From an uncultured Spirochaetota bacterium (GTDB lineage Bacteria; Spirochaetota; Spirochaetia; SZUA-6; Fen-1364), in NCBI GenBank assembly GCA_963734545.1, contig CAVTHO010000007.1, positions 576,001 to 640,000 of the forward strand: a stretch of DNA of 64,000 nucleotides, given 5' to 3'. How positions within the stretch are numbered: the first letter of the stretch is position 1; each line of letters opens with the position of its first letter. The notes beneath the pieces are model-generated. The model was given only the letters and a program-made list of their open reading frames with translations, did not search any database and was not told the DNA's origin. The position numbers and the translations under genes are program-made. Of the stretch, positions 8,028 to 63,755 are shown piece after piece.

Positions 8028-8520
8028 GCTTCCTCTCCAGGGTTTCCTTCAGAAGTGCGAATTTCCTGCGGGCTTCTTCAGAGGTCTCCATGAGAGCCTC
8101 GTGCGTCTTGAGAATGAAATCGGCGCCGGGCCTTTCGGTGTTGGGCGCGAGCACCGCCATGTCCGCCGGCGCCTGCACGTCCCGCTCTTCAATGAGAAGG
8201 TAGTTCTTCAACCCCATCTGCGCGAGGATGTCCCGGCATTCGCGGGTCGGCCTCAGCAGGTGGAGCCTTCCGCCGGATCCCTTCTGGAGCTTCTTGTCGA
8301 TTGCCACCAGCAGGCCGATAAAAGTGGAATCCATGTACCGGCATTCGGAGAGGTCGACATAGACTGCGGGCACGTCCGCGGTCACATCAAGCCGAGCAAG
8401 GAGCGCTTCGCGCAGGGGGTAGCAGAGACTTGCGCGGATGCTTCCCCGCGCCATGAGGAAATACCCGCGAGAGTCGCGGCCGATCAGGATCGAGTCGATG
8501 TTCGGGTTGCCCACGTTCAT
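7984..8520 (-). CDS. STAS-domain anti-sigma-factor antagonist with C-terminal extension
   Basis: YVDLSECRYMDSTFIGLL is the STAS phosphorylatable-Ser motif. Confidence 0.82.
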   Translation of the reverse strand: MNVGNPNIDSILIGRDSRGYFLMARGSIRASLCYPLREALLARLDVTADVPAVYVDLSECRYMDSTFIGLLVAIDKKLQKGSGGRLHLLRPTRECRDILAQMGLKNYLLIEERDVQAPADMAVLAPNTERPGADFILKTHEALMETSEEARRKFALLKETLERKLKGSEKPPGGNPGE

Positions 8521-8545
8521 CCCTGCATACTATAATTCCACACTC
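8521..8545. promoter_or_regulatory. Overlapping divergent -10 elements for mutS (+) and the STAS gene (-)
   Basis: TATAAT at 8531-8536 on the + strand. TATAGT/TAGTAT on the - strand 6-8 nt before the ATG at 8520. Confidence 0.55.
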
Positions 8546-11161
8546 ATGGTCGAAACAACCCCCGTGATGGCGCAGTACAGGCGGGCCAAGGAGAAATTCG
8601 CCGACTCCATCCTCTTCTTTCGCCTCGGGGATTTCTACGAAATGTTCGAAAAGGACGCGCGCGAAGCGTCGTCCCTGCTCGACCTGACATTGACGCAGAG
8701 GGCAGGGGTGCCGATGTGCGGCATTCCCTATCACGCCGCTCCGTCCTACATTTCACGGCTTCTCGCCGCGGGGAAAAAAGTCGCCATCTGCGAGCAGACG
8801 AGCCAGCCGGTCAAGGGGCTGATGAACCGTGACGTCGTGGAGGTGATCACTCCCGGCACGGTGATGGACGACAGCTACCTGTCCAGGAACGCGAACAACT
8901 ATCTCCTGGCAATCGGGAGACGGGCGGAAGCCATGTCGCTCGCGTATGCGGACCTGTCCACCGGCGAATTCGCGGCCACCTCGTTTCCCTTTGCCGAACG
9001 GGAGCAGACGCTGAAAAAGGAATTGCACCGCCTGGATCCCCGGGAGGTGATCACGCAGGAGTCCCTGCTGGTGGAAGATCGCGTGACCCGGGACCTGCTG
9101 GGAGAGCGGGAGGGGCTCCTCGTGAACCGTTTGCCCGATTGGAGCTTCGACCTGGACGCGTGCCGGTCGCGTCTCCAGCACCAGCTCGGGGTTGCGAATC
9201 TCAAGGGGTTCGGTCTCGCAGACGACTCCCCTGAGATCCTTGCGGCAGGGGTCCTGCTCGAGTACCTCGGACAGACCGCCAAAAAGGCCCTCGCGCACGT
9301 TTCGTCGCTCTCCGTGTACGCGGACAGGAGCTTCGCGGAGCTGGACGAGGCGACGCAGCGCAATCTCGAGCTGCTGGGCAACCTGCAGGACGGCAGCCGG
9401 AAGTACACGCTTCTCGAGGTGCTCGACCAGACACGGACCTCCCCGGGGGCGCGCAAGCTCAGGCGGTGGATTCTCACTCCGCTGAAAGAACGCGGCCCGA
9501 TAGAAAAGCGGCACGGCGCGGTCGAGTCTCTCTACCGGGACCAGGCAGGTCTGGCGCGGCTGCGGGAGTCGCTCGGCGGAGTGCTCGACCTGGAGCGGCT
9601 GACCGCGCGAGTGGCCATGGACAGGGCCCACGCGAAAGATCTCCTCGCCATCAAGTCGACTCTGCAGGCAGTCCTCATCGCTGGGCGGGCTGCTTGCCGG
9701 AGAACGGGCGGCGGGCATGTCCGAGGGCCTGAGAGACCTGGCGCAGCCCCTCACCACCCGCGCAGGGCTCATGAGAGAATTGACCGCATTGCTCGAAAAC
9801 GCGATCAATGAAGAGCCGGCGGTCGTCCTCACGGAAGGCAATCTCATCAAGCGCGGGTTCAACGCCGAGCTGGACAGGCTTCATGGTTTGAAGGACAACG
9901 CGCGGGAGATCCTCGAGACCTACCTTGCGGAGGAGCGCACGCGCACCGGCATCTGCTCCCTGAAGCTCCGCTACAACAAGATCATCGGGTACTACTTCGA
10001 GGTCACGAAATCCAACCTGGCCCTGGTACCTCCGCATTTCGTGCGCCGCCAGTCCCTTGTCGGCGGGGAGCGCTACACGACCGACCGTCTCGCCGACCTC
10101 GAATCGGAGATCAACGATGCCACGGAACGAATCGTCGAGATCGAAAAGAACCTGTTCCTGGAGATACGGACGACGACGAAAGAGGCAGTACCCTGGCTCC
10201 TGATCGTCTGCGACGCCGTGTCTTCCCTGGACGTGTTCCAGTCCCTGGCATTTGCGGCAACCGTGCACGGGTACGTGCGGCCGGTCATGACTGACGGCGT
10301 CGAGCTCACCATCCAGGACGGAAGGCACCCGGTGGTGGAGGCCCATCTCCCGGGCGGGGCATTCGTTCCCAACAGCCTGCGAGTGCTCCGGCGACGGACC
10401 GATTCTTCGTGATCCTGACCGGACCGAATATGGCGGGCAAATCGACCTTTCTCCGCCAGGTGGCGCTCATCATCGTCATGGCGCAGATCGGCTCGTTCGT
10501 GCCCGCGGCAAGCGCCAGGATCGGGATCGCGGACCGTGTCTTCTGCCGCGTGGGGGCAACGGACAATCTCGCCCGCGGAGAGTCGACTTTTCTCGTGGAG
10601 ATGAATGAGACGGCGCATATCCTGCGGAGCGCCACGGCCAGAAGCCTCGTCATCATGGACGAAATAGGGCGCGGCACGAGCACGCGTGACGGTCTGGCAA
10701 TCGCCTGGGCGGTGAGCGTGTACATTCTGTCGAAAATCGGGGCGCGGACACTTTTCGCCACTCATTTCCACGAGCTCACGGGGCTCGCGCACGAGAGAGT
10801 TGCCAACCTCTCAATGGAGGTCCTCGACAGGGAAGGGGAGATCGTCTTCCTCAAGAGAGTACGGGAGGGCCCTTCGAGCAACTCATACGGGATCCACGTT
10901 GCAAGGCTCGCGGGGCTGCCCGCGGAGACGCTCGCCTATGCGCAAAAGATGCTCGCTGAGCTGAATGCGGGCGCCGGGATCGCTGCCGCCCCGCCGCCCC
11001 CGGTCGACAAGCCTGCCGTTGTGCAGGCGCAGCTTTTCTCCTCGGAGGAGCTTGTGCTGCAGGAGATCCTGGCCATGCAACCGGAAAAGACTACTCCGCT
11101 GGATGCCCTGACCGCCATCGCCAGATGGAAGAAGGAGCTCTCCCGCGACGAGGACGGCTGA
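8546..11161 (+). CDS. mutS: DNA mismatch repair protein MutS (frameshifts near 9690 and 10390)
   Basis: TPVMAQY, GDFYEMF, TGPNMAGKST, STFLVEM, DEIGRGTS, FATHFHEL. Confidence 0.96.
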
Positions 11162-15424: not shown

Positions 15425-17995
15425 ATGCCCGAGGAACTGGACAGCAAGAAAAAACCCAAGACCACGCTCATCAAGCACAAGAAGGCGGAGGAGGAGATCC
15501 CGGTCGGTCGTCGAAGAAGCCGCCTCCTCCCGGAAAAGAAAAAGGTGGTCGTGGTCAAGAAAAAGGTCGTCGTGGTCGCCAAGAAGACCGACGCACAAGG
15601 TGGTGGCGGCAGCACCCGAGGCCGCGAAGCCCGAGGCTGCTGCCGCTCCGCGCGCCGCCGCCGCAAAGCCTGCCGCGCGCCGCCCATCCCCCTGCACATG
15701 CGCAGCCCGAAGCTGCTCCACGCGGCAGGCGCGCGCCCTGCCCAGGCGCAGGCCCACGCGCACGCGCCAGCGCGCGCTCACCCGCGGCCCGTCCGCCGGC
15801 GCATCGCTCCGCTCGAGCGGGGAACGGCCCCGCGTTCATTCACCGCCGGAAAAGAGGCCCGAGCCCGCGGCCTTCCGTGCGCGAATCCGTGCGGGAAAAG
15901 ATGCGGCTGACCCCGCTTCCCCCGCGGCCTGCCGGCCCGCCGCCGCCGACAGGGAGGTCAGGGCGGCCCGCAGGGGTATGGCCCCCCGCGCTCGGGCCAG
16001 CGGCCCCGCCGCCCGGACAGCGGCGGCTCTTCATCAGTCGACGGGCACCGACGACAAGAAGCCGCCGGCCAAGAAGTTCTTCTCCAAGGCCAAGAGGAAG
16101 ATCGAGTATCCGAAGCGCAAGCACGATCAGCCGGAGGAGAAGTACCTGCAGGTCAAGAAGAAGACCGTCATCATGGCCAACCCGGTGCCCAAGGAGATCT
16201 CCATCACGGAGGGCATCACGGTTTCCGACCTGGCCAAGAAGATGAACCTCAAGAGCTCGGACCTCATCCACAAGCTCATGGGCATGGGGATGATGGTCAC
16301 GATCAACCAGCAGATCGACTCGGACACGGCATCCCTTCTGGCCGCGGAGTACGACTGCAAGGTGAACGTGGTCTCCCTGTACGACGAGACGGTGATCGAG
16401 GAAGACAAGGAGCTGGCAGGAGGACCTCAGGCCCCGGCCGCCCATCGTCACGATCATGGGACACGTCGACCACGGCAAGACCAAGCTCCTGGACGCCATC
16501 CGCAGCGCCAACGTCGCGGAGGGCGAGTACGGCGGCATCACGCAGCACATCGGCGCCTACTGCGTCGACCTCCCGGCCACGGCGGAGGCATCAGGGCGGA
16601 TCGTGTTCCTGGACACCCCGGGCCACGAGGCGTTCACCATGATGCGGGCCCGCGGCGCCCAGGTGACGGACATCGTCGTGCTGGTCGTCTCCGCGGTGGA
16701 CGGGGTCATGCCGCAGACCATCGAGGCCATCAACCACGCCAAGCAGGCGGAGGTCCCGATCATCGTCGCGGTCAACAAGGTGGACCTCGCCGAGGCGAAC
16801 GTGGAGCTGGTGAAGCGGCAGCTCTCCGAGCACGGCCTGACCCCCGAGGAGTGGGGCGGCACCACGCATCTACAACGAGGTCTCGGCCCTCAAGAAGACG
16901 GGCATCAAGGAGCTGCTGGAAAGCATCCTGCTGCAGGCCGAGGTGCTCGAGCTGAAGGCGAGCTACGAGAGCACGGGCGCTCGGGCATCGTGCTGGAGTC
17001 CCGCGTGGACATGGGACGCGGCATCGTGGCCACGGTGATACTGCAGAAGGGTACCCTGCGCGCGGGAGATTCCTTCGTGGCCGGCATCTATTCGGGCAAG
17101 GTGCGCGCCCTCTTCAACGACAAGGGAGAGAAGGTCACCGAGGCCACTCCGTCCCTTCCCGTGGAGGTCATCGGCTTCACCAGCATCCCCAACGCGGGCG
17201 ACCCGTTCCAGGTCACCGACACCGAGCAGACGGCACGGACCATCGGCAGCAAGCGCCAGGAGCTGAAGAAGCAGGAGGAGTCGAAGAACGTCAAGAAGGT
17301 CACGCTGGACAACCTGTACGAGCAGATCAAGGAAGGCCAGATCCAGGAGCTGAAGGTCATCATCAAGGCGGACGTGGCCGGCTCCGTGGAGGCCCTGAAG
17401 TCCTCCCTGCAGAAGCTGTCGACCTCCGAGGTGAAGCTGGAGGTGATCCACGCCGCGGCGGGGGCCATCAACGAGGGCGACGTCATGCTCGCCTCCACCT
17501 CCAACGCCCTGATCGTCGGGTTCCACGTGCGGCCGAGCGCCGCGGCGCAGAGCCTCGCGGACCGCGAGAAGGTGGAGATCCGCAAGTACAACATCATCTA
17601 CGACGCGCTGGAGGACATCCGCTCCGCCATGGAAGGCCTGCTGAAGCCCGAGCTTCGGGAGGAGCAGATCGGCACCGTCGAGGTGCGCAACACCTTCAAG
17701 ATCCCGAAGATCGGCACCATCGCCGGCTGCCAGGTCATGAGCGGGCAAGGTGAGGCGCAACGCCGACGTCCGGCTCATCCGGGACGGCGTGGAGATCTTC
17801 AAGGGCAAGATCTCCTCGCTGAAGCGGTTCAAGGACGACGCGCGCGAGGTCGAGGAAGGCTTCGAGTGCGGCATCGGCCTGGAAGGCTTCCACGACATCA
17901 AGGTCGGGGACACCATCGAGGTCTACGAGACCCGGGAGCTCGCCAAGAAGCTGGAGGGGAGCCGCGATGGCGGAAGTAAGGCTCCGGCGAATTGA
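15425..17995 (+). CDS. infB: Translation initiation factor IF-2 (several frameshifts)
   Basis: [44 protein letters not shown]. Confidence 0.96.
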
Positions 17996-18315
17996 GAGCC
18001 TCCTGCGGCAGGAGATCTGCTCCATGATCTTCACGGGGGAGATCAAGGACCCGCGAATCGAGCAGCTCACGACGGTGACCGAGGTCAAGGTCTCCCGCGA
18101 CCTCGGCCACGCCAAGGTCTGGGTGTCCCGCTTCGGGACCGGGCCGCGGTGGCCGGCAGCGTGGACGGCCCTCAACCATGCCGCGGGCTACATCCAGGGC
18201 GTTCTCTCCAAGCGCATCTCCCTGCGGATCTTCCCCCGGCTCACATTCCTGCGTCGACGACTCCATGGAGAACGGGTTCCGCATCGCGCAGAAGCTGCGG
18301 GACATCATGCATTGA
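17967..18315 (+). CDS. rbfA: Ribosome-binding factor A (frameshifted)
   Basis: [24 protein letters not shown] and PRLTF; a TGA at 18313-18315 overlaps the truB TTG. Confidence 0.9.
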
Positions 18316-20022: not shown

Positions 20023-20293
20023 ATGCCACTGACGAAGCAGCTCAAGGAAGAGATTGTGAAGACATTTGGAGCCAATGAAAAGGATACCGGAAAGACGGAG
20101 GTGCAGGTCGCACTCCTCACCAAGCGCGTGGAGGAGCTGACTGAGCACTTCAAGCGTCATCCCAAGGACAACAACTCCCGACGCGGCCTGCTGATGCTCG
20201 TCGGACAGCGGCGCCGGCTGCTCGCGTACTTGCGCAAGAGAGACCTCGACAAGTACCGCGAAGATCATAGAGCGGCTCAACCTGCGCAAGTAA
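20023..20293 (+). CDS. rpsO: 30S ribosomal protein S15 (frameshift near 20265)
   Basis: [13 protein letters not shown] and [22 protein letters not shown]; LNLRK* in the shifted frame. Confidence 0.96.
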
Positions 20294-20313
20294 GCGCGAA
20301 AGCAAGGATACAG

Positions 20314-22581
20314 ATGGAACATCGTGTAACATTCAAAATCGGGGAGGAGGAGCTCATCCTCGAAACGGGCAAGATGGCCAAACAGGCCAACGGCGCGGTT
20401 TTTGCCCGGCTGGGGGGCTCTACGGTCCTGGCCACCGCCTGTTGCGCGGACAACGAGAAGGAAGACCTCGACTTCATCCCGCTCTCCGTGGACTACATCG
20501 AGAAGTACTACGCCGCGGGCAAGATCCCCGGCGGATTCATCAAGCGGGAGGGCAGGCCCAAGGACAAGGAAGTCCTGGTCTCACGGCTCATAGACCGTCC
20601 CATCCGCCCCCTTTTCTCCCGGCTTTTCCGCAGCGAGATCCAGGTCATCCCCATCGTCATCTCCACGGATCTGGTCAACCCTCCGGACATTCTGGCTATG
20701 AACGCGGCCTCCGCCGCAATCACGATTTCCGATATCCCCTTCGAGGGCCCCATCGGCGCCGTGCGCATGGGCTACGTCGACGGCGCGCTGGTGGTCAACC
20801 CGACCTTCGACCAGATCCTGGTCAGCCAGATAGACCTGATTGTCGCGGGCACTGAGAAGGGCATCACCATGGTGGAAGGCGGAGCGCACCAGGTGTCCGG
20901 AGTCCCTCATTATCGAGGCAATTGAAAAGGCGCACCTCACGATCCGCGAGCTGTGCAGGATCCAGAACGAGCTGGCGCGGCTGGCGGGAAAGCAGAAGCT
21001 CCCCCTCGTCGAAAAGCCGACGACGTTCACCCTCGGCGAGGAAGTGCGGGAATGGGCGATTTGCCAAGTTCGAAGCAGGCCTGCTTCGTCAAGGGCAAGG
21101 AGGTCCGCGCCGCGGCCATCAAGGCGGTGCGGGAAGAAGCGAAAGCTCATTTCGCCGACCGGCTTGCCGAGACCGACGTGAAGCCGGTGAAGGCGCTGTT
21201 CGAGGACATGGAGCAGGAGATCATGCGCGCCTCCATCGTGGGAAAGGGCGTCCGCACGGACGGCCGTTCGCCCGTCGCAGATCCGCCCCATCACCTGCGA
21301 GATCGACGTGCTCCCGCGCACCCATGGCGTCGGCGCTGTTCACCCGCGGGGAGACGCAGGCCCTGGTCGTGACCACGCTCGGCACCGCGCTGGACGAGCA
21401 GATCATGGACAACATCGACGGGGACAGCAGGAAGAACTTCATGCTGCACTACAATTTCCCTCCGTTCTCCGTGGGAGAAGTGGGACGCCTCGGTTCGCCC
21501 GGCCGACGCGAGATCGGGCACGGCCACCTGGCCGAGCGCGCCATCAGCATGGTCCTGCCGAGGAAGGAAAACTTCCCGTACACGATCCGCATCGTCTCGG
21601 AGATCCTCGAGTCCAACGGCTCCTCCTCCATGGCCACCGTGTGCGGAAGCACCCTGAGCCTCCTCAACGCGGGCGTGCGCATCGAGAAGCCGGTCGCGGG
21701 AATCGCGATGGGCCTCGTGAAGGAAGGCGACAAGTTCGTCGTCCTGAGCGACATCCTCGGGCGAGGAAGATCACCTCGGCGACATGGACTTCAAGGTCGC
21801 CGGCACCGAGGACGGGATCACGGCCCTCCAGATGGACATCAAGATCGAAGGGGTGAGCGCGGAGATCCTGCCAGAAGGCGCTGGGACAGGCGAAGGAAGG
21901 CCGCCTGCACATCCTGGGAATCATGAACAAGACCATTTCCGCAGCCGCGCAGCGACATCTCCGATTTCGCGCCCAAGGTCATCTCGCTCAAGGTGCCGAC
22001 GGAGAAAGATCGGGCTGATCATCGGCCCGGGCGGCAAGAACATCAAGGGAATGAGCGAGAAGACCGGCTCCACGATCAACATCGACGACGACGGCACGGT
22101 CACGATCTACAACCACCTCAAGGAGGGCGCGGAGAAGGCTCAGACGCATGGTCGAAGGCCTGATCGAGGAGGCGGTGGTCGGCAAGACGTACACCGGGCC
22201 GGTGAAGCGGATCATGGATTTCGGCGCGTTCGTCGAGATCCTTCCCGGCAAGGAAGGCCTCGTCCACATCTCCAAGCTGGCCGCCGGCCGGGTGGAGAAC
22301 GTCAGCGACGTGGTGCACGAAGGACAGGAGCTCACCGTCACGGTCACCGAGATCGACCACATGGGCCGCATCAACCTTGCCACGAAGGAAGCGCTGGATG
22401 CCAACCCCGCGCTCCTCACCGAGCACGCGGAGCGAAGGCCCCCCGCGCCGGGACGGCGACAGGCCCCGCAGCGGCGGCTACCGCGACGGCCCCCGCAGGC
22501 CAGGGCGGCTTCTCGGACAGGCCGCCCCGCCGCGATGAGGGACCGCGCAGCGGGCCCCGTCCCCCGCGGAGAGATGGGTGA
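20314..22581 (+). CDS. pnp: Polyribonucleotide nucleotidyltransferase (several frameshifts)
   Basis: [38 protein letters not shown] and S1 domains. Confidence 0.96.
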
Positions 22582-23851
22582 TCCTCACGGAAAGACTGGC
22601 GAACGGAGCACTCCTGCTCCTGGAGCCGGTCGACCGCACGGATACCCTCTGCATCGGGTTCTGGTTTCTCCACGGCTCGCGGGACGAAGGGCCGAAGGAG
22701 CGCGGGTTTTCGCACTTCCTCGAGCACATGCTCTTCAAGGGGACGGCCCGGAGGAGCGCGCTCTCGATCGCGCAGGAGATCGACCGTGTCGGCGGCATCA
22801 TCAACGCCTTCACGGAGAAGGAAACCACCTGCGTCTACGCCATCATTCCGCGCGAGCACCTGCGGCTCGCCTTCGACGTTCTCACGGACATGACGATCGG
22901 CTCCCTCCTCGACGAGGCGGAGTTGGAGAAGGAGAAGGAGGTCATCGTCAACGAGATCCGTTCGGTGGACGATTCCCCGGAGGAGAAGGGACACGACCGC
23001 TACCTGCGCGAGATGTGGGGCGACCACCCCCTCGCCCGGAAGATCACCGGCGAGGTGGATGAGGTGCGCGGCGTCGTGCCGGATGACCTCGCGCCGCTTC
23101 TATCGGGAACGGTTCGTGCCCTCCAACACGATCATCGCAGTGGCCGGCAATTTCCCCCTCGACGAAGTCCGGGACCTTGCGCAGGCCATCTACGCGGGTG
23201 CCACGCCGGCGGCGCGGCACCCGCAGCCGCCACGGACAGCGCCTTCCTGGCAGAGGAAGGTCGCTGTGGTGCCGGACCGGTTCAACCAGGTCCAGATCTA
23301 TGCCGGCACCTGCTATCCCCTGGATCACGACAGTCGACCACTACTACACGTCCCTCGTCTTCAGCACCGCCTTCGGCGAGTCCATGAGCTGCCGCCTTTT
23401 CCAGAAGCTCCGCGAGGAGCAGGCGCTCTGCTACACGGTCTACTCGTTCCGCTCGTTCTTCTCGGACACGGGCATGTGGACGATATACGCCAACGCCACC
23501 CCGGCCCTTGCGCGGAAGTTCCTCGCCGCGCTCGACCAGGAGCTCACGCGGCTTCTGAAGGAGCCGCTCTCCGACACGGAGATCGGTGACGCGCAAAGCC
23601 ACCTCGTCGGGAGCATGATCCTCTCCCGCGAGGACATGGAAACGCGCATGAAACGTCTCGTGCGCCAGCACATGATGATGGACCGCATTCTCGAGTTCGA
23701 CGAGTCGGTTGCCGCTCTGCGCAGGGTGAGCGCCGGGGCGGTGGAGAGCTACGCCCGCCAATGCCTCAAAAGGAAGGCGTTCAGCCTCCTTGCCTACGGC
23801 AGCCGGGGCATGGCCGCCGTGCGGGGCTTCAACTTCACCTTCCCGGATTGA
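22578..23851 (+). CDS. M16 (pitrilysin/insulinase) family zinc peptidase (frameshifts near 23090 and 23330)
   Basis: [11 protein letters not shown] (HxxEH), [16 protein letters not shown]. Confidence 0.92.
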
Positions 23852-45004: not shown

Positions 45005-45723
45005 CTATTGCGCCGCGGTATTCCGCGGATTTGGCGCCGCGGTATTCCGCGGATTTGGCGCCGCGATCTCTCGGGCCACTGCCCGCGCCCGATCGACGAT
45101 GAGCTTTTCCCGGGACAGCCGTGCAATATCGGTGCATTGCGCGAGGAAATCGGAACGATGCGTCCTTTCAACCGCGGACAGAAAGTCGAGGACGAGCGCG
45201 AGCTCCTGGGGCTGGATTGCGCCGCTGCCTCTTTCCAGCGCTCTCACGACCCGTGATCCGGCCTGGGCGAGAGCGGGGAGGGCTCTGGGCGTATTCAATA
45301 AGGGAAGGATACGCACGAGGGCTCCCACGAGCTGGGGGTCCCTCCACTCCGCCATTTCTCCTGGCCATCGAATCGAGCTCATTCCGATTGGCCTCTATCC
45401 TTTGGCGAAATCCAGCTCTCCCCGCGTGATGGTTCGAACAGGCCCTGCAGCAGGGTGCGAAGAAGGAGCTCGACCGTGTCGCGCGTCTTCCTGGAGTTGC
45501 CCGCCATCAGCGCGGCGATTATGTTCCCCGCAAAAGGGTCTGCCCGGTTTCCGACTCCCGCGCATACGGAGAGTTTTGTGTCGAAATCCTCACCCTGCAG
45601 GGCCGACAGGAGCACGGGATCCAGAGTCCTGTCGCTGTCCGCCGCGAGCGTTCCCCAGTCTGCGGCTGATGCGCAGAGTGAAACCAGAATCAGCATGAGG
45701 GAAACGGCCGCTCTACTGGACAT
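45005..45723 (-). CDS. Secreted hypothetical protein, helical-repeat-like (frameshift near 45400)
   Basis: Signal peptide MSSRAAVSLMLILVSLCASA; continues in ORF 45005..45382. Confidence 0.55.
45010..45065. repeat. 24-bp tandem repeat, 2.3 copies
   Basis: GCGCCGCGGTATTCCGCGGATTTG at 45010 and 45034, with a partial copy at 45058. Confidence 0.95.
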
Positions 45724-52174: not shown

Positions 52175-53698
52175 ATGTTGAGATTCGCCGCGGACCGTGA
52201 GAAGCTGGAAGTCCTTTTCGACATTTACGCGACGGATCAACTCCGCCTACGCGGACATCCGGGGCCTTCTCACGCAGATCATCGAATCGGCAACCGAGCT
52301 CACCGAAGGGGAAGCCTCGTCTCTCATGCTGGTCAACCCGGAGAACAACAAGCTGTACTTCGAGATCGCCCTCGGGCCCAAGGGAGCGAGCCTCAAGCAG
52401 TATTCGGTGAACATGGGCGAAGGAATCGCCGGGTGGGTGGCAGAGAAGAACACCTCCCTCATCGTGAACGACGCCCAGAACGACGCCCGCTATCTACCCC
52501 GACATCGCCCAGAAGATCGGGTTCCCCACGAGCTCCATCCTCGCCGTCCCCATGAGGGTGAAGGACAAGCTCGTCGGAGTCATCGAGATCATCAACAAGA
52601 GGGGCGGAAAGAAGCTTCACGGAAGAGGATCTCCAATGGCTCGAGATCTTCTCCACCCAGGCCGCCATCGCGGTGCAGAACGCCCGCTCCTTCCAGAAGG
52701 TCAGGAACGAGCTCAGCGTGCTGCAGGACAAGGTCCAGGCGGAGCAGGGGTGGCACACGTTCATCGGGGAAAGCAAGGTCATAAAGGAGAAGCTCGACAT
52801 TGCCCGCAAGGCCGCCGAGACCGATTCCTCGGTGCTCCTGCTGGGGGAAAGCGGCGCGGGCAAGGAGCTCTTCGCCGAGCAGATCCACCTGGCCAGTCCC
52901 CGCAGCAGCAAGCCGTTCATACGGGTGAACTGCGCGGCAATCCCCGAGGCGCTCCTGGAAAGCGAGCTTTTCGGTCATGTCAAAGGCGCATTTACCGACG
53001 CTATCGCGGACCGCAGAGGCCGGTTCGAGCTGGCGGATGGCGGCACCCTCTTCCTGGATGAGATCGCCGACATGCCTCTTTCCCTCCAGGCCAAGCTCCT
53101 TCGGGTCATCCAGAGCAGGACATTCGAGAGGGTAGGCTCCAGCGATTCCCTGCAGGTAAACGTGCGCATCATCGCCGCGACCAACCACGAGCTGGAAAGA
53201 GAGGTCGCCGTGGGAAGATTCAGGGCCGACCTCTTCTACCGCCTCAATGTGCTGCCCATCCACATACCGCCGCTCCGGGAACGGAAGGAAGATATTCCGA
53301 GGCTGGCGGAGTTCTTTCTTCACAAGCACTCGCGCGAGACAAAGAAGCAGCTTACCGGATTCAGCGACGAAGCAATGGAGCAGCTTCTTTCCTACTCCTG
53401 GCCGGGAAACGTGCGGGAGCTGGAAAACGCGATTGAAAGGGCGGTTGTTTTCTCCCGGGACGACCGGATACGCGCCGAGTCACTCGCCCTCAACGCGGGA
53501 GGCGCTCCCGGCAGCGAGGCCTACTCGGAGAGGTCCCTCCGTGAGGCATTGAACATATTCAAAAAACACTTTATCACAAAGGCTCTGGAATCCAACGGGT
53601 GGCACCAGACCAGGACGGCCAAAGCTCTGGCAATCCAGCGGAGCTACCTGTCCAAGCTCGTGAAAGAATTGAGCATCATGAAGGAAAGAGGGGTATAG
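52175..53698 (+). CDS. GAF-domain sigma-54-dependent transcriptional activator (frameshifts in the GAF region)
   Basis: GEGIAGWV (GAF), GESGAGKE, ESELFGHVKGAFTDA, FLDEI, WPGNVREL, C-terminal HTH. Confidence 0.9.
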
Positions 53699-59657: not shown

Positions 59658-60570
59658 CTACTGCCCCTGAGACTTGCCTGCAGAGCCCAGTAAAGGCTCA
59701 ATACGAGGAGATCTGACCTGTTGTCGTGAAAGTTCCCGGTATGCCCCCGAGCTCGCAAATCTCGATATCAAGCTCCAGAGCTCCAGTGCGTGCTGCGGAT
59801 AGCCGGCGGCAAATGTTGAGCCGGCAAGGTAGTAAAGATCCTTATATAGCTCAACCTCGCCGGCGAATGCCTGAAGCTCGCCGCTCTTTTCTACCGCGGC
59901 GAGGACGTCCTGCAATGAAGCAAACTCGTAGTTGATGTCTCTCTCGCGGATGTAAGAGTTGATCTCGCTGACCTCATAAATGACGGAGTACAGGAGATGG
60001 GATATCGACTGTGAGAATCGCCCGGTTCGATAGTAGAACCATCCGAGCCTGGAGTGGGCCTTCAACGCAAATGAAGAATCGAATCTGTAGAGCAGCAGCA
60101 CATGGTCCAATCCTTTCTCAAGGTAGTTCTTCTCAATCTGGGTGCGCATGCGCGAGGTGGCCGTCTCAATAAAATGCCTGTCATCTGCCACGACCGCAGT
60201 AAGCTCATCCTCCATGAGCTTGTACAGCTCCTGGCTCTCATACAGGCGAGCCATTCTGTAAAGAACATCGTACTGAGAATCGGAAATGTAAAAGCCCTTT
60301 CTCTGGTTGTATGCTTTCTGATACTGACTGGCAGCCAGGTCAAACTCCCCTTCTTCGAAGTAAACGTCGCCAATCGCCATCTCTGCCTCTGGAAAGATCC
60401 CAGCAGAAGAAATAGCGTCTTTGTAGTATTGAAGAGCTCTGCCAAATTCCTTTGCAGCCATCGAGGCGTTTCCCTGCTCGAAGAGGATCCAATTCTGTGA
60501 CTGCCTGTCCTGACCTGACAGAGGCAGGGCGAGAAATGAGACAAGAAAGACTACCGGGATCCTGCGCAAG
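59658..60570 (-). CDS. Secreted TPR protein (start uncertain)
   Basis: Signal-peptide-like RRIPVVFLVSFLALPLSG followed by TPR helices. Confidence 0.7.
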
Positions 60571-60720
60571 ATACTGCCTCGCGATCTAAAGCATCCATAG
60601 GCCAATATGGGGTGTCTAAAAAACATGACTTGCTTAAGTAAATTGTTCGCTTACGTATTGATGTTTCGAGCAAGTGTAAAAGCACCTCCTCGCTTCACGT
60701 CTTCGAATCGTCTTTCTGCC

Positions 60721-61332
60721 TTACCACCCTGCGCTGAGGACAAGATCGCCTTGGGTCCTGACAAGGTTCCTTATGCTCGTGGTATAGGTCAAAATCCGCT
60801 TGTCATCTGACAGCGATCCAAGCGTGAACTCCTGGATCGGCGTGGGAGCCTCGAGGACGAACGTGAGGTCGTAGCCATCGAAGAATGCATCGATCATTTG
60901 CAGCGAGTCTTCAGTCACCGGCTGTTTGGGCGCGTGCGCGATCAGTTGGGAGAATGTGCGCCGTGAGCCATCCACGCTCAACTTGAGATTCGCGTCACGG
61001 AAGGCGTCCACCTGCGCCAGCGCGTCGAGAGAGTCGAAAGCGAGCTCGACGCGGATCGAGATATCTTTCTCGTTCTCCGTCCGCTCGAACTTCGTCAGCC
61101 GCACCCTGCCCTGAGAGGCCTGCAGCGACCGTTCGAAATCGGCCCTGGCGAGGGGAAGGGGAACGACACCCTTCTCCGAGCTCGTTGTGCCGAGATCCGC
61201 CACCAGCTGGGACACGCGGTAGTTGAGAGCAAGGGTCCCGGAGCCGTCTTCCCTGATCGTCATCCTGCTGTCGATGCCGACGCAGGACATGATAAAAACC
61301 GAGGCTATACAAAGGATGACGATTTTTCGCAT
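60721..61332 (-). CDS. Putative lipoprotein
   Basis: MRKIVILCIASVFIMSC lipobox followed by DGSGTL; TATAGT -10 at 61354-61349. Confidence 0.75.
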   Translation of the reverse strand: MRKIVILCIASVFIMSCVGIDSRMTIREDGSGTLALNYRVSQLVADLGTTSSEKGVVPLPLARADFERSLQASQGRVRLTKFERTENEKDISIRVELAFDSLDALAQVDAFRDANLKLSVDGSRRTFSQLIAHAPKQPVTEDSLQMIDAFFDGYDLTFVLEAPTPIQEFTLGSLSDDKRILTYTTSIRNLVRTQGDLVLSAGW

Positions 61333-61410
61333 GGTCTTTCCTGATGTCACTATAGCGGATTCCCGGTCGAATTGCCAGTGGAGCACCCTGGAGTGTCAGT
61401 GCCCTGCCGG

Positions 61411-61726
61411 CCAACCGCGCCAACTCCGCCAGGAACAGAAGGGAGCGCAAGGGCTGCGGTCTCGCTTCCGCAGGCTCTCGGCGTCTGCTGCGCAGCCGCC
61501 TGCCGCCATACGCGTCCCTATCGTCGCTCGACCTCAGCATCCAACTGCGCCAACTCTGCCAGGAGCAGAAGGGAGCGCAAGGCCTACGGTCTCGCTTCTG
61601 TACCTCCCGTACTCGCTCGACCTCGGCATCCAACTGCGCCAACTCTGCCAGGAGCAGAAGGGAGCGCAAGGCCTACGGTCTCGCTTCTGTACCTCCCTGT
61701 ACTCGCTCGACCTCGGCATCCCTGCC
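61411..61726 (-). repeat. Array of about 89-90 bp structured repeats (two full copies, one diverged core, one partial)
   Basis: Full units begin at 61524 and 61613, a partial at 61703, and a diverged core spans 61411-61470. Confidence 0.93.
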
Positions 61727-62124
61727 TACGACGTTGCGGCGCGGTGGTTATACCAGTTCTTCGCTTTGCGCTTGGTAAGCTGTTCTTCGCGGTGGGCCCA
61801 ATAGTACTGAAGGGTTCTCGAGTTTTCGCAGGAATGGCAGATCGCCTTTCCCTCTCGAAACTCCCTCTGCGGCTGCCATTTGCCGCAACGCTCGCACTTT
61901 CGCTCATTGGCGTGGGGATCTTTGGAGTCTTGCAGAAAATAGTAGCTTGAACGTATTTTCATCAGGTTGCGGTGCGATACCTGGCCCGTCTTCAGCCAAT
62001 GATGAATCGTTGATTGGGTGCGCTGGAACATACGGGCGAGATCCGACTTGGACATCCTCCACGTTCTCATCATCCATTCGAGCATCTCGCGGACGGGAGG
62101 ATCTTCTGGCAATTCTCCTGGCAT
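61726..62124 (-). CDS. Cro/XRE-like HTH protein with a C-terminal CxxC-x15-CxxC zinc finger
   Basis: MSKSDLARMFQRTQSTIHHWLKTG, CERC...CHSC, basic tail; GAGGT RBS. Confidence 0.72.
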   Translation of the reverse strand: MPGELPEDPPVREMLEWMMRTWRMSKSDLARMFQRTQSTIHHWLKTGQVSHRNLMKIRSSYYFLQDSKDPHANERKCERCGKWQPQREFREGKAICHSCENSRTLQYYWAHREEQLTKRKAKNWYNHRAATS

Positions 62125-62135
62125 TGCAGGTACCT

Positions 62136-62158
62136 CGTTACCGGATATATCGGTAACG
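62136..62158. promoter_or_regulatory. Perfect inverted repeat (candidate operator) upstream of the HTH gene
   Basis: CGTTACCG-gatatat-CGGTAACG. Confidence 0.55.
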
Positions 62159-62201
62159 TACGGCCATTTTCTTAAGCGGATCAGGCATTATGCCGTTTTT
62201 T

Positions 62202-63755
62202 TTATTCCCACTCGATGGTAGCCGGCGGTTTGCTGGAAACATCGTACACGACACGGCCAATTTCCGGAATGTTGTTGGTAAGAGTCGATGAGATCTCCAG
62301 AAGATCGTTCATTTCCATGGGAAAAACGTCCGCGGTTATTGCGTCGAGCGACGTCACCGCGCGCAGCGCGAGAACGTGGCCATACCGCCGCATGTCGCCT
62401 GAGACGCCGACGGAGCGTATCGGCAGAAGGACGCAAAAGGCCTGCCAGATCTTCTCATAGAGGCCCCGTCCCCGCAGTTCCGCGAGAAAGAGGGCGTCCG
62501 CTTTGCGGAGAAGGGCGCTGTTCTCCCTGTTCACCTCGCCGAGGATCCTCACCGCAAGACCGGGCCCCGGGAATGGATGACGGTTGACAACGGCACGGGG
62601 AAGGCCGAGAGTGAGCCCCAGTTCCCTGACCTCGTCCTTGTACAACGAGGAGAGGGGCTCGATGATCTTTCCCTCCGCCCTCATTGCCTCGACAAGCGGC
62701 GAGCGCACGTTGTGATGCGTCTTGATGAGGTGTGCTTTGTCACCGACGCCTCGGCCTGACTCGATGAGGTCCGTGTACAAGGTTCCCTGCGCAAGGAAGG
62801 CATCGCGGATGCCCAGGGCGCGGATCTCCTCCGCCTGCACCTGCATGAACAGGTCCCCGATGATGCGCCTCTTCTGCTCGGGATCCGTCACTCCGGCGAG
62901 TCCGGCAAAGAAGCGTGCGGATGCGTCGATCGAATGCACGTGCACGGCGCCCAGTTCAGCAAGACTTGCCCGCACCTCGTCAGACTCACCCTGACGCATC
63001 AGGCCGGTATCGATGTACATCAAATGGATCCGGCGTGGGTCGAGACTCTTCAGCAGCAGGGCAGCCACGACGCATGAATCGACCCCTCCGGATATGAGGA
63101 GAACGACCTGCCGATCCCCTACCCGCTTCACAAGCTCTTCCCGCTCCCGTGACAGGAATGCCTTCATGTTCCAGTCCTGGCGGGCAGCGCAGATGTCGAT
63201 TGCGAAGGCGCCGAGTATTTCCATGCCGTATTGGCAGTGACTTGCCTCGGGGTGAAATTGCACGCCCCAGATGCGTCTGTTTTCATCGACAAAGGCCGCC
63301 GGAATCCCGCTTTCCGAGCTTCCGATAACGCGAAATCCCCGTGGAGTTGCCGTTACCGAGTCGCCATGGCTCATCCAGGACACGAAGGAATCCTCGGGAA
63401 GGCGGGAAAAGAGTCTCGTCCGGTCCTGAAGGGTGATCCGTGCGCGGCCGTACTCTTTTCGTCCCAGCGCCCTGACGGTACCCCCGTGGTCCGCGCTGAG
63501 GCGCTGGAAGCCGTAGCAAATCCCCAGGATGGGGAGACCCGAGTCGTAAATGCGCGCATCCACCGTGGGAGCATCGGCTTCATAGACCGAGTACGGAGAG
63601 CCGGACAGGATGATCCCTTTCGCCGCCGTGAGATCCATCTCATCGATTCTGGCGTCGCCTCGTACGATTTCACAGTAGACACCCAGCTGCCGGATCCGAC
63701 GCCCGATGAGCTGTGTGCTCTGGCCGCCAAAATCGAGAACCAGGATCTTGTCCAT
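62202..63755 (-). CDS. guaA: GMP synthase (glutamine-hydrolysing)
   Basis: LGICYG, QFHPE, SGGVDS, IKTHHNV, HPFPGPGL, SKPPATIEWE. Confidence 0.97.
   Translation of the reverse strand: MDKILVLDFGGQSTQLIGRRIRQLGVYCEIVRGDARIDEMDLTAAKGIILSGSPYSVYEADAPTVDARIYDSGLPILGICYGFQRLSADHGGTVRALGRKEYGRARITLQDRTRLFSRLPEDSFVSWMSHGDSVTATPRGFRVIGSSESGIPAAFVDENRRIWGVQFHPEASHCQYGMEILGAFAIDICAARQDWNMKAFLSREREELVKRVGDRQVVLLISGGVDSCVVAALLLKSLDPRRIHLMYIDTGLMRQGESDEVRASLAELGAVHVHSIDASARFFAGLAGVTDPEQKRRIIGDLFMQVQAEEIRALGIRDAFLAQGTLYTDLIESGRGVGDKAHLIKTHHNVRSPLVEAMRAEGKIIEPLSSLYKDEVRELGLTLGLPRAVVNRHPFPGPGLAVRILGEVNRENSALLRKADALFLAELRGRGLYEKIWQAFCVLLPIRSVGVSGDMRRYGHVLALRAVTSLDAITADVFPMEMNDLLEISSTLTNNIPEIGRVVYDVSSKPPATIEWE

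Follow-up and report, generated by a model that had tools for sequence, protein, structure and literature searches.

Genes around the repeat array

The DNA analyzed here (the window) is a stretch of 64 kb from an uncultured Spirochaetota bacterium. In one part of it, four neighboring genes all lie on the minus strand. The most upstream is guaA, which encodes GMP synthase (62202-63755; Pfam GATase and GMP_synt_C, tblastn). It is followed by a gene for a 132-aa HTH-zinc-ribbon protein (61726-62124; ORF, homologues, AlphaFold model, and structural alignment) with its TAG stop codon at 61726-61728, by a lipoprotein-like gene whose product has a signal peptide with Cys and no family match (60721-61332; ORF and family searches), and by a TPR gene (59658-60626; ORF and family search). 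The window otherwise holds housekeeping genes such as mutS, nusA, infB, pnp, recA, and lptF/G. Family searches of its 62 non-overlapping ORFs (57 at E <= 1e-5 and the other 5 at E <= 0.1) gave no cas, transposase, integrase, or CsrA family, in agreement with a preliminary description of this locus, which had stated that cas genes are lacking.

A scan of one genome per species yielded 37 further loci with the HTH gene, all in spirochaete MAGs. By tblastn, guaA lies directly upstream of the HTH gene in 36 of the 37, the remaining locus starting at the HTH gene itself, and a lipoprotein homologue lies downstream in 20/37. Because this guaA-HTH-lipoprotein synteny is conserved, the HTH gene can be regarded as a conserved chromosomal gene and not as part of a mobile unit. 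Both genes that flank the spacer have their own conserved promoter-like sites. That of the lipoprotein gene (61349-61378, minus strand; CTGGCA, 18 nt, TATAGT) was found by promoter scan and by recurrence. It runs from 61378 to 61349, outside the repeat array, which is where the preliminary description had put the -10 element of this gene. The orthologous spacers inspected (L001 to L036) share its motif (CTGGCA/CTGGAT ... TCCGCTATAGT) and are otherwise unalignable, and blastn matched the promoter part in L010, L014, and L016. The stretch upstream of the HTH gene (62137-62176, minus strand) is promoter/operator-like and is conserved in 21/21 relatives inspected; in the window it contains a 7-nt inverted repeat, GTTACCG / CGGTAAC, around the -10 region.

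Organization of the array

The spacer between the HTH gene and the lipoprotein gene contains a tandem array at 61524-61721 (TRF: period 89, 2.2 head-to-tail copies, 98% matches, score 382). This score is the highest among 42 rows in the window, the runner-up having 112. Repeat search gave two full copies, at 61524-61608 (the reference) and 61613-61697 (99%), which adjoin head to tail without a spacer, and an older diverged copy at 61394-61478, which is 72% identical to the reference over 85 nt and well kept only in a 58-nt core (61411-61468, 91.4% by blastn). A partial third copy at 61703-61721 is identical in 19/19 positions (blastn), and a 45-nt unique segment (61479-61523) sits between the full copies and the old copy. 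Searching the window with the 36-nt core of the unit gave 3 matches at <=3 mismatches, with 0 expected (100 shuffles) and none elsewhere in the 64 kb. The preliminary description had placed unit copies at 61524 and 61613, a partial copy at 61703, and a diverged core at 61411, had seen no unique spacers between the full copies, and had let the array start at the stop codon of the HTH gene. Taken together, TRF, repeat search, and blastn confirm these positions, and 5 nt separate the end of the array from the TAG.

On the transcribed strand, the blocks that are shared between genomes are a linker (GATGYCGAGGTCGAGCGAGTAC...), M, K (CUNCGG, 8 nt, CCGNAG), and H. Read from the stop codon on the minus strand, the window starts with a partial third unit (61703-61725), a linker part that abuts the stop codon and was delimited by blastn, repeat search, and the sequence. 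Then come tandem unit copy 1 (61613-61702, 90 nt), consisting of linker, degenerate K arm, and hairpin H1 (TRF, repeat search, blastn 100%), and tandem unit copy 2 (61524-61612, 89 nt; TRF, repeat search, blastn 98.8% over 85 nt). Hairpin H1 (61636-61671) has a 5-bp outer and a 7-bp inner stem with the loop in the CUCCUGG region (fold -14.1 kcal/mol, z -1.76; covariance model R1, 76.7 bits; pair counts), and hairpin H2 (61547-61582; core search, covariance model R1) has a core identical to that of H1. Beyond copy 2 lie the unique middle segment M (61479-61523), which carries a small 4-bp hairpin at 61485-61495 (alignment, the 130 versus 89 spacing, pair counts), and hairpin K (61454-61473), with a 6-bp stem and an 8-nt loop, whose intact form is found in the old module, both young units having a degenerate version (pair counts, sequence reading). 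The last element is hairpin H3 (61417-61452), the diverged copy, which forms its G.U pairs only on the minus strand (core search, fold, pair counts, covariance model 68.9 bits).

The block order after the stop is TAG-linker-K'-H1-linker-K'-H2-linker-M-K-H3 in the window, TAG-H-linker-M-K in the orthologous spacer L001, and TAG-linker-M-K-H(truncated)-linker-H-K-H in L017; in L011 it is TAG-H-linker-M-K, followed by unrelated low-GC DNA and the contig end. Alignment showed that segment M is present once in the window and once each in L001, L017, and L011. The 89-nt unit corresponds to an older module of ~130 nt minus a 41-nt part of M, which explains both the 130 and the 89 spacings. The two young copies are nearly identical, so that the tandem duplication would be very recent. 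They differ by 1 substitution and 1 one-base indel, and such single-base differences may be errors, since frame breaks (mutS and pnp in the window, guaA and the HTH gene in L017) make the assemblies look error-prone. Within the window, mutS is broken into three consecutive ORFs (8438-11161, plus strand; domains I-III, III-IV, and V) and rpsO/pnp is split or fused over three ORFs (20023-23062, plus strand), which suggests either pseudogenes or frame breaks of an error-prone assembly. Compared with the young units, the old copy (91% identity over 58 nt) and the L001 copy (89.6%) are about equally distant (blastn). As far as its sequence tells, the spacer is fast evolving and would have been shaped by duplications and deletions.

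Distribution among relatives

The search set consisted of the 37 loci and the window, 628,980 nt in total, of which ~102 kb come from the four genomes that carry the element (64 kb from the source genome plus about 38 kb from the other three). Blastn with the unit and with the 396-nt spacer found the element only within the orthologous spacers of L001, L017, and L011, in addition to the window. A covariance model of the core hairpin (R1), built from 8 copies, recovered exactly these 8 copies with E <= 1.3e-5, and the next best match in the 628,980 nt had an E value of 0.58. The element is therefore carried at 4/38 HTH loci, window included, which does not bear out the co-occurrence with HTH-ZnF homologues considered in the preliminary description. 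That description had also weighed many dispersed copies, unlinked to the gene, as the sign of a generic repeat; neither blastn nor the covariance model found any among the 37 spirochaete MAG loci and the 64-kb window. In L002 (~18271-18289, minus strand) and L003 (~17321-17339, minus strand), a coding stretch for a sigma-54 activator resembles the H loop and inner stem (E values of 0.78 and 1.6 with the covariance model), which we judged to be chance similarity at the codon level. The window has a sigma-54 activator gene of its own at 52673-53698 (plus strand).

The carriers are different species-level genomes, not strains. Their HTH proteins are 95-96% (L001 and L017) and 85.6% (L011) identical to that of the window. 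For L011, guaA is 77.6% identical, and about 100 nt of the element region are conserved. Hairpin H occurs three times in the window, once in L001, three times in L017 (one copy truncated), and once in L011. Between the HTH stop and the lipoprotein start lie 393 nt in the window, 226 nt in L001, and 324 nt in L017, as compared with a spacer of 50-120 nt in the 17 measured relatives that lack the element. L010 was left out of these lengths, as its ORF reads on: at 10397-10549 the HTH ORF lacks the usual stop and runs ~50 codons into the lipoprotein start region, which may reflect an error in the sequence or a genuine extension. In a guaA tree of 32 rows (L004, L016, L017, L019, and L036, with split guaA hits, and L023, with no guaA sequence, were left out), the window and L001 are sisters (100/100) and L011 is in a polytomy. 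This position of L011 is compatible with a single origin of the element, which may thus have arisen once on the tree.

In both L001 and L011, H comes directly after the HTH stop codon. In several relatives this position after the stop is taken by other GC-rich hairpins, and a T run of at least 4 occurs in 4/19 spacers. The sequence past the shared hairpin module in L011 (10520-10630) is low-GC and unrelated, and may represent an insertion or rearrangement; the contig ends 230 nt past the HTH stop, with no lipoprotein gene.

Folding and pairing of the hairpins

On energy alone, the evidence that the array is structured is weak. The whole 396-nt spacer folds on the minus strand at -170.1 kcal/mol, compared to -169.2 +/- 6.1 for shuffles (z -0.14), and has a z of +1.21 on the plus strand; single 89-nt units have z values of +0.2 to +1.2. 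The 36-nt core does form the nested stems that had been described before, at -14.1 kcal/mol on the minus and -13.8 kcal/mol on the plus strand, with z about -1.75 on both strands and equally good shuffles in 10/200 (minus) and 7/200 (plus) cases. The three stem changes of the diverged copy are, as had also been noticed, G.U pairs on the minus strand and C.A mismatches on the plus strand. Its core has a minimum free energy of -10.9 on the minus strand versus -8.0 on the plus strand, where the fold is without the inner stem. Since a transition that hits a Watson-Crick pair always leaves a wobble on one of the two strands and never on both, the chance that all three fall on a named strand is 1 in 8 by our own arithmetic, so that these changes are suggestive, not decisive, as strand evidence.

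The comparison between copies was more informative on pairing. We aligned 8 copies of H (7 distinct sequences from 4 genomes, some of them paralogous). The inner 7-bp helix is paired in 98% of cells, and in 3/7 pairs both bases have changed: U-A to G-C, C-G to U-A or G-C, and U-A to C-G via a U.G intermediate in H3. The covariation score of H is 0.210 versus 0.082 for shuffled alignments and was reached by 0/500 shuffles, and pairing falls to 31-59% in controls with slid partners. With 82.6% pairing and no covariation, the outer helix is the weaker of the two. Hairpin K is paired in 95.8% of cells across the 4 genomes, with changes on both sides in 2/6 pairs, and K together with the M hairpin has 97.5% pairing and 3 double changes in these genomes (19/500 shuffles). 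As the H sequences are few and partly paralogous, the shuffle test overstates significance, and for this small sample the pairing statistics of H, K, and M are supportive rather than conclusive. RNAalifold also gave a long-range fold of linker-M-K for the four genomes, with an unfavorable covariation term (+0.44), and we did not trust this fold.

The loop CUCCUGG is invariant in all 8 copies, and the loop region GCUCCUGGC is invariant except for one C-to-U change in H3. In L017a the inner stem is lost and the same loop is closed by another stem. Two invariant U.G pairs lengthen the helix on the transcribed strand only. H is more stable on the transcribed (minus) strand in 7/8 copies, by 0.2 to 4.6 kcal/mol; the exception is L017c, in which an A-A mismatch is present and the plus strand gives the more stable fold. 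These comparisons support a pairing constraint on the core hairpin H, which fits the transcribed strand slightly better. Of the structured array put forward in the preliminary description, the constraint on H is thus retained, with double changes in 3/7 pairs, and the structure of the units and the spacer is not, their energies being at shuffle level. The strand-specific pairing claimed there stands in the 7/8 copies and the two U.G pairs; it has to be toned down in that the advantage is slight and L017c shows the opposite.

The HTH-zinc-ribbon protein

The protein encoded upstream of the array has an N-terminal XRE/Cro-like HTH, a CxxC...CxxC zinc ribbon, and basic C-terminal helices. No Pfam or NCBIfam family was found above cut-off, the HTH hits being sub-threshold only. 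There are 38 homologues with 52-89% identity, none of them with a Pfam domain; the source name of one gives the organism as Spirochaetia. The four Cys and a stretch around the recognition helix are invariant among the homologues. In the AlphaFold (AF2) model, which has a mean pLDDT of 89, four helices at the N-terminus are followed by a small zinc ribbon and by two long, basic helices at the C-terminus. Structural alignment of residues 6-72 gave matches to XRE/Cro-type HTH domains of regulators that bind dsDNA, with middling Z scores of 5.4-7.5; the matches include RsaL (Z 7.5), HigA, controller proteins, and MqsA (3gn5, Z 5.8). Foldseek against the PDB gave nothing at E <= 0.001 and HTH matches only at E > 0.1, and a profile search of PDB sequences gave a single weak zinc-finger hit (E 0.005). 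The protein resembles MqsA in that it combines an XRE/Cro-type HTH fold with a CxxC...CxxC zinc ribbon. In MqsA the order of these domains is reversed, and unlike MqsA the gene found here has no toxin partner gene. In several homologues on long MAG contigs (proteins P0021, P0031, and P0036, and those at loci L017, L025, and L036), the C-terminal half is frame-shifted, and out-of-frame sequence takes the place of the zinc-ribbon half.

Comparison with known element classes

Rfam searches gave no match for the array at E <= 10 and none for the L001, L011, and L017 spacers at E <= 1, no tRNA or tmRNA was found in the L001, L011, and L017 loci, and blastn of the element against plasmids and phages gave no match at E <= 1e-3. 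A CRISPR array was ruled out by the head-to-tail full copies with a period of 89 and the lack of cas among the 62 ORFs. Likewise, we rejected a MITE, as 0/10 inverted-repeat pairs in 61000-62300 bracket the array; no alignable empty site that could reveal a target-site duplication was found among the orthologous spacers. An attC site follows a cassette ORF and consists of an imperfect palindrome between inverted core sites (RYYYAAC ... GTTRRRY), with intI nearby. Here, the transcribed strand of 61394-61728 has 2 GTTRRRY and 0 RYYYAAC, synteny is conserved, and there is no integrase in the window, so this class was rejected as well. A sigma-54 promoter inside H was dismissed on reading the sequence, since the GG and GC elements are 10 nt apart; the consensus spacing is 12. 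A coding repeat does not fit an 89-nt period and between-genome indels that are not multiples of 3. An ORF of 61 aa in the array has no words in common with any of 5.8 billion proteins of 33-107 aa, a null result that depends on gene calling and is therefore weak evidence against dispersal.

The array does have features of several repeat classes. It is an 89-bp head-to-tail unit in 2.2 copies between two co-oriented genes, as in minisatellites, and its copy number differs between related genomes (at the species level), as in VNTR loci. The presence of the unit at several loci, which characterizes a MIRU proper, was not observed; there is one locus in 628,980 nt. The GC-rich imperfect extragenic palindrome 3' of a gene that is typical of REP/BIME elements is present, with H and K directly 3' of the HTH stop, and the many dispersed copies of such elements are not, as none lies off the orthologous spacer in 628,980 nt. 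Less probably, it may be a low-copy dispersed family with other copies beyond these 628,980 nt. A terminator scan of 60600-62300 found no intrinsic terminator on the minus strand: the H stem is present but then followed by GUUGG, and there is no U-tract after any H copy.

Discussion

The array looks like an intergenic, hairpin-bearing minisatellite that arose as a young, lineage-specific tandem duplication. With moderate confidence, we consider it to be a lineage-specific hairpin module in the 3' flank of the HTH gene, terminator-like or protecting the 3' end, that was locally amplified into this minisatellite. The spacer between the HTH and lipoprotein genes holds a lineage-specific cluster of small GC-rich hairpins (H, K, and the one within M) on the strand on which the HTH gene is transcribed. 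In the lineage of the window, the older module of ~130 nt (linker-M-K-H) would have lost the 41-nt part of M, and a very recent head-to-tail duplication of the resulting 89-nt unit, for which slippage or unequal recombination is the most likely mechanism, would then have produced a local minisatellite that begins at the HTH stop codon. H is plausibly part of the HTH transcript, because it lies directly 3' of the stop codon, and the hairpins most likely act in cis on the 3' end of this transcript. They may stop or pause transcription without a U-tract, or they may block 3'-to-5' exonucleases, as REP and terminator-like hairpins do; their action could also insulate the lipoprotein gene's own promoter. 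The extra unit copies are probably near-neutral. We infer the 3'-end function, as well as transcription through the array and the mechanism of duplication; the cis role is suggested by the position after the stop, by the hairpins found there in relatives, and by the independent conserved promoters of the flanking genes. Several results count against a function at the 3' end: there is no U-tract after the H copies and no terminator was found, the energies of the unit and the whole spacer are at shuffle level, L017c has an A-A mismatch, and K is degenerate in the two youngest units. The invariant loop counts against it as well, as it hints at a sequence-specific recognition that a plain 3'-end hairpin does not need.

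Because of this loop, we keep a small probability for a recognition-based role, in which a partner would read a lineage-specific cis- or trans-acting RNA module via CUCCUGG and the copy number (1 to 3) would tune the dose. On the transcribed strand this loop is similar to an anti-Shine-Dalgarno sequence, and on the other strand to a GGA loop; possible partners would be ribosome-binding sites, a CsrA-like protein, or the neighboring zinc-ribbon protein. One form of this idea, the preliminary proposal that the array and the HTH-zinc-ribbon protein form a protein-plus-RNA-array system with repeated RNA (or ssDNA) modules as functional partners of the protein, now seems very improbable. The element does adjoin the gene on the same strand, its H loop is invariant, and a zinc ribbon and a basic tail could touch nucleic acid. 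However, the gene is in conserved synteny at 37 further loci and only 3 of those have the element, leaving 34 without it, and the H stems differ at 3/5 central pairs although the recognition helix does not vary. Moreover, the HTH fold matches dsDNA-binding regulators, and an autoregulator would be expected to bind upstream of the gene, where the conserved promoter/operator-like stretch (62137-62176) offers a candidate operator for autoregulation. The protein is linked to the repeat by adjacency alone. Still further from the data, and extremely improbable in our view, is a transcript of the plus strand that acts as a sponge RNA of the CsrA/RsmA type through GGA-containing loops (CAGGA). Repeated GGA-loop hairpins are the hallmark of CsrB and RsmZ, and every plus-strand H loop reads CCAGGAG, followed by AAGGGAG. 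These GGA loops occur on the plus strand only, but no promoter-like site was found on that strand near the array, H3 loses two pairs there, and 7/8 copies are less stable on it. The element is also absent from most relatives, it has no Rfam match, and no CsrA was found in the window.

It is unlikely, though of all rivals the one we take most seriously, that the array is neutral junk, i.e., a recent functionless duplication in the spacer with hairpins that are ordinary palindromes of GC-rich intergenic DNA. Presence and copy number that vary among close relatives, absence from 34/38 loci, energies at shuffle level, and a spacer with many indels would all fit such an origin. Pair-preserving double changes in H, K, and the M hairpin, a loop that is invariant in 8/8 H copies, and about 100 nt kept in L011 despite a guaA that is only 77.6% identical would not. 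A low-copy mobile repeat similar to REP/BIME, BOX, or MITE elements, with its other copies beyond the DNA searched, appears rather improbable. A mosaic of GC-rich hairpins with a variable number of modules does recall BIME and BOX as passages of one review present them (PMC3184786), and L011, which is in a polytomy on the guaA tree, carries the element followed by low-GC DNA and a contig end. A single origin on that tree is possible, though, and neither the covariance model nor blastn found a copy beyond the orthologous spacer in the 628,980 nt, ~102 kb of which are carrier DNA. Together with the lack of terminal inverted repeats around the array, of plasmid or phage matches, and of a transposase in the window, this also speaks against the REP/MITE cluster that the preliminary description had named as the main alternative.

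In their likely mode of action, the REP/BIME clusters of enterobacteria and pseudomonads would be the closest match to the array. Passages of PMC3184786 present them as GC-rich imperfect stem-loops in extragenic DNA 3' of genes that affect the stability of the upstream mRNA. The array shares with them the GC-rich imperfect stem-loops just 3' of a gene and the organization as a mosaic cluster. Whereas REPs have hundreds of dispersed copies, no second locus of the array was found in 628,980 nt; its units are head-to-tail direct repeats, in contrast to the alternating orientations of REP/BIME, and it has no sequence similarity to any Rfam family. The MIRU minisatellites of Mycobacterium tuberculosis are, in the parts of PMC3635867 and PMC3184786 that deal with them, tandem units of tens of bases between co-oriented genes, which are thought to be transcribed with the flanking genes and vary in copy number between relatives. 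The array is similar in having tandem units in a spacer between co-oriented genes, with a copy number that varies between relatives. MIRUs, however, are a family at many loci, whereas the 89-bp unit has one locus and consists of covarying hairpins. Of the pneumococcal repeats treated in passages of PMC3184786, BOX is modular with a variable number of tandem internal modules, and SPRITE is a terminator-like hairpin repeat biased to the 3' ends of genes. Both are dispersed multi-copy families of Firmicutes, unlike the array, for which no dispersal was seen in 628,980 nt and which has no U-tract.

The array also resembles intrinsic terminators, as its stable GC-rich stem comes between a stop codon, which it follows directly, and the promoter of the next gene, and some orthologous spacers carry a hairpin plus a T run as these terminators do. 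Unlike them, it has no T run after H, and its stems are short (7 bp including two G.U pairs). Forms of intrinsic terminator without a U-tract have been reported from GC-rich bacteria.

If the 3'-flank hairpin module is the correct reading, the array is a case of ordinary spacer evolution, in which a terminator-like hairpin module was born, trimmed, and amplified in one small spirochaete lineage, and the repeat might be of use as a local strain marker. It would gain importance only if the invariant loop turned out to be a recognition site. Independent of the repeat, the conserved regulator that belongs to no family and always comes after guaA in these peat and soil spirochaetes is arguably the more interesting puzzle. 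A second tandem repeat lies far from this locus, at 45010-45065 of the window: it has a 24-bp unit in 2.3 perfect copies (100% match, TRF score 112) and contains the palindrome CCGCGG twice per unit.
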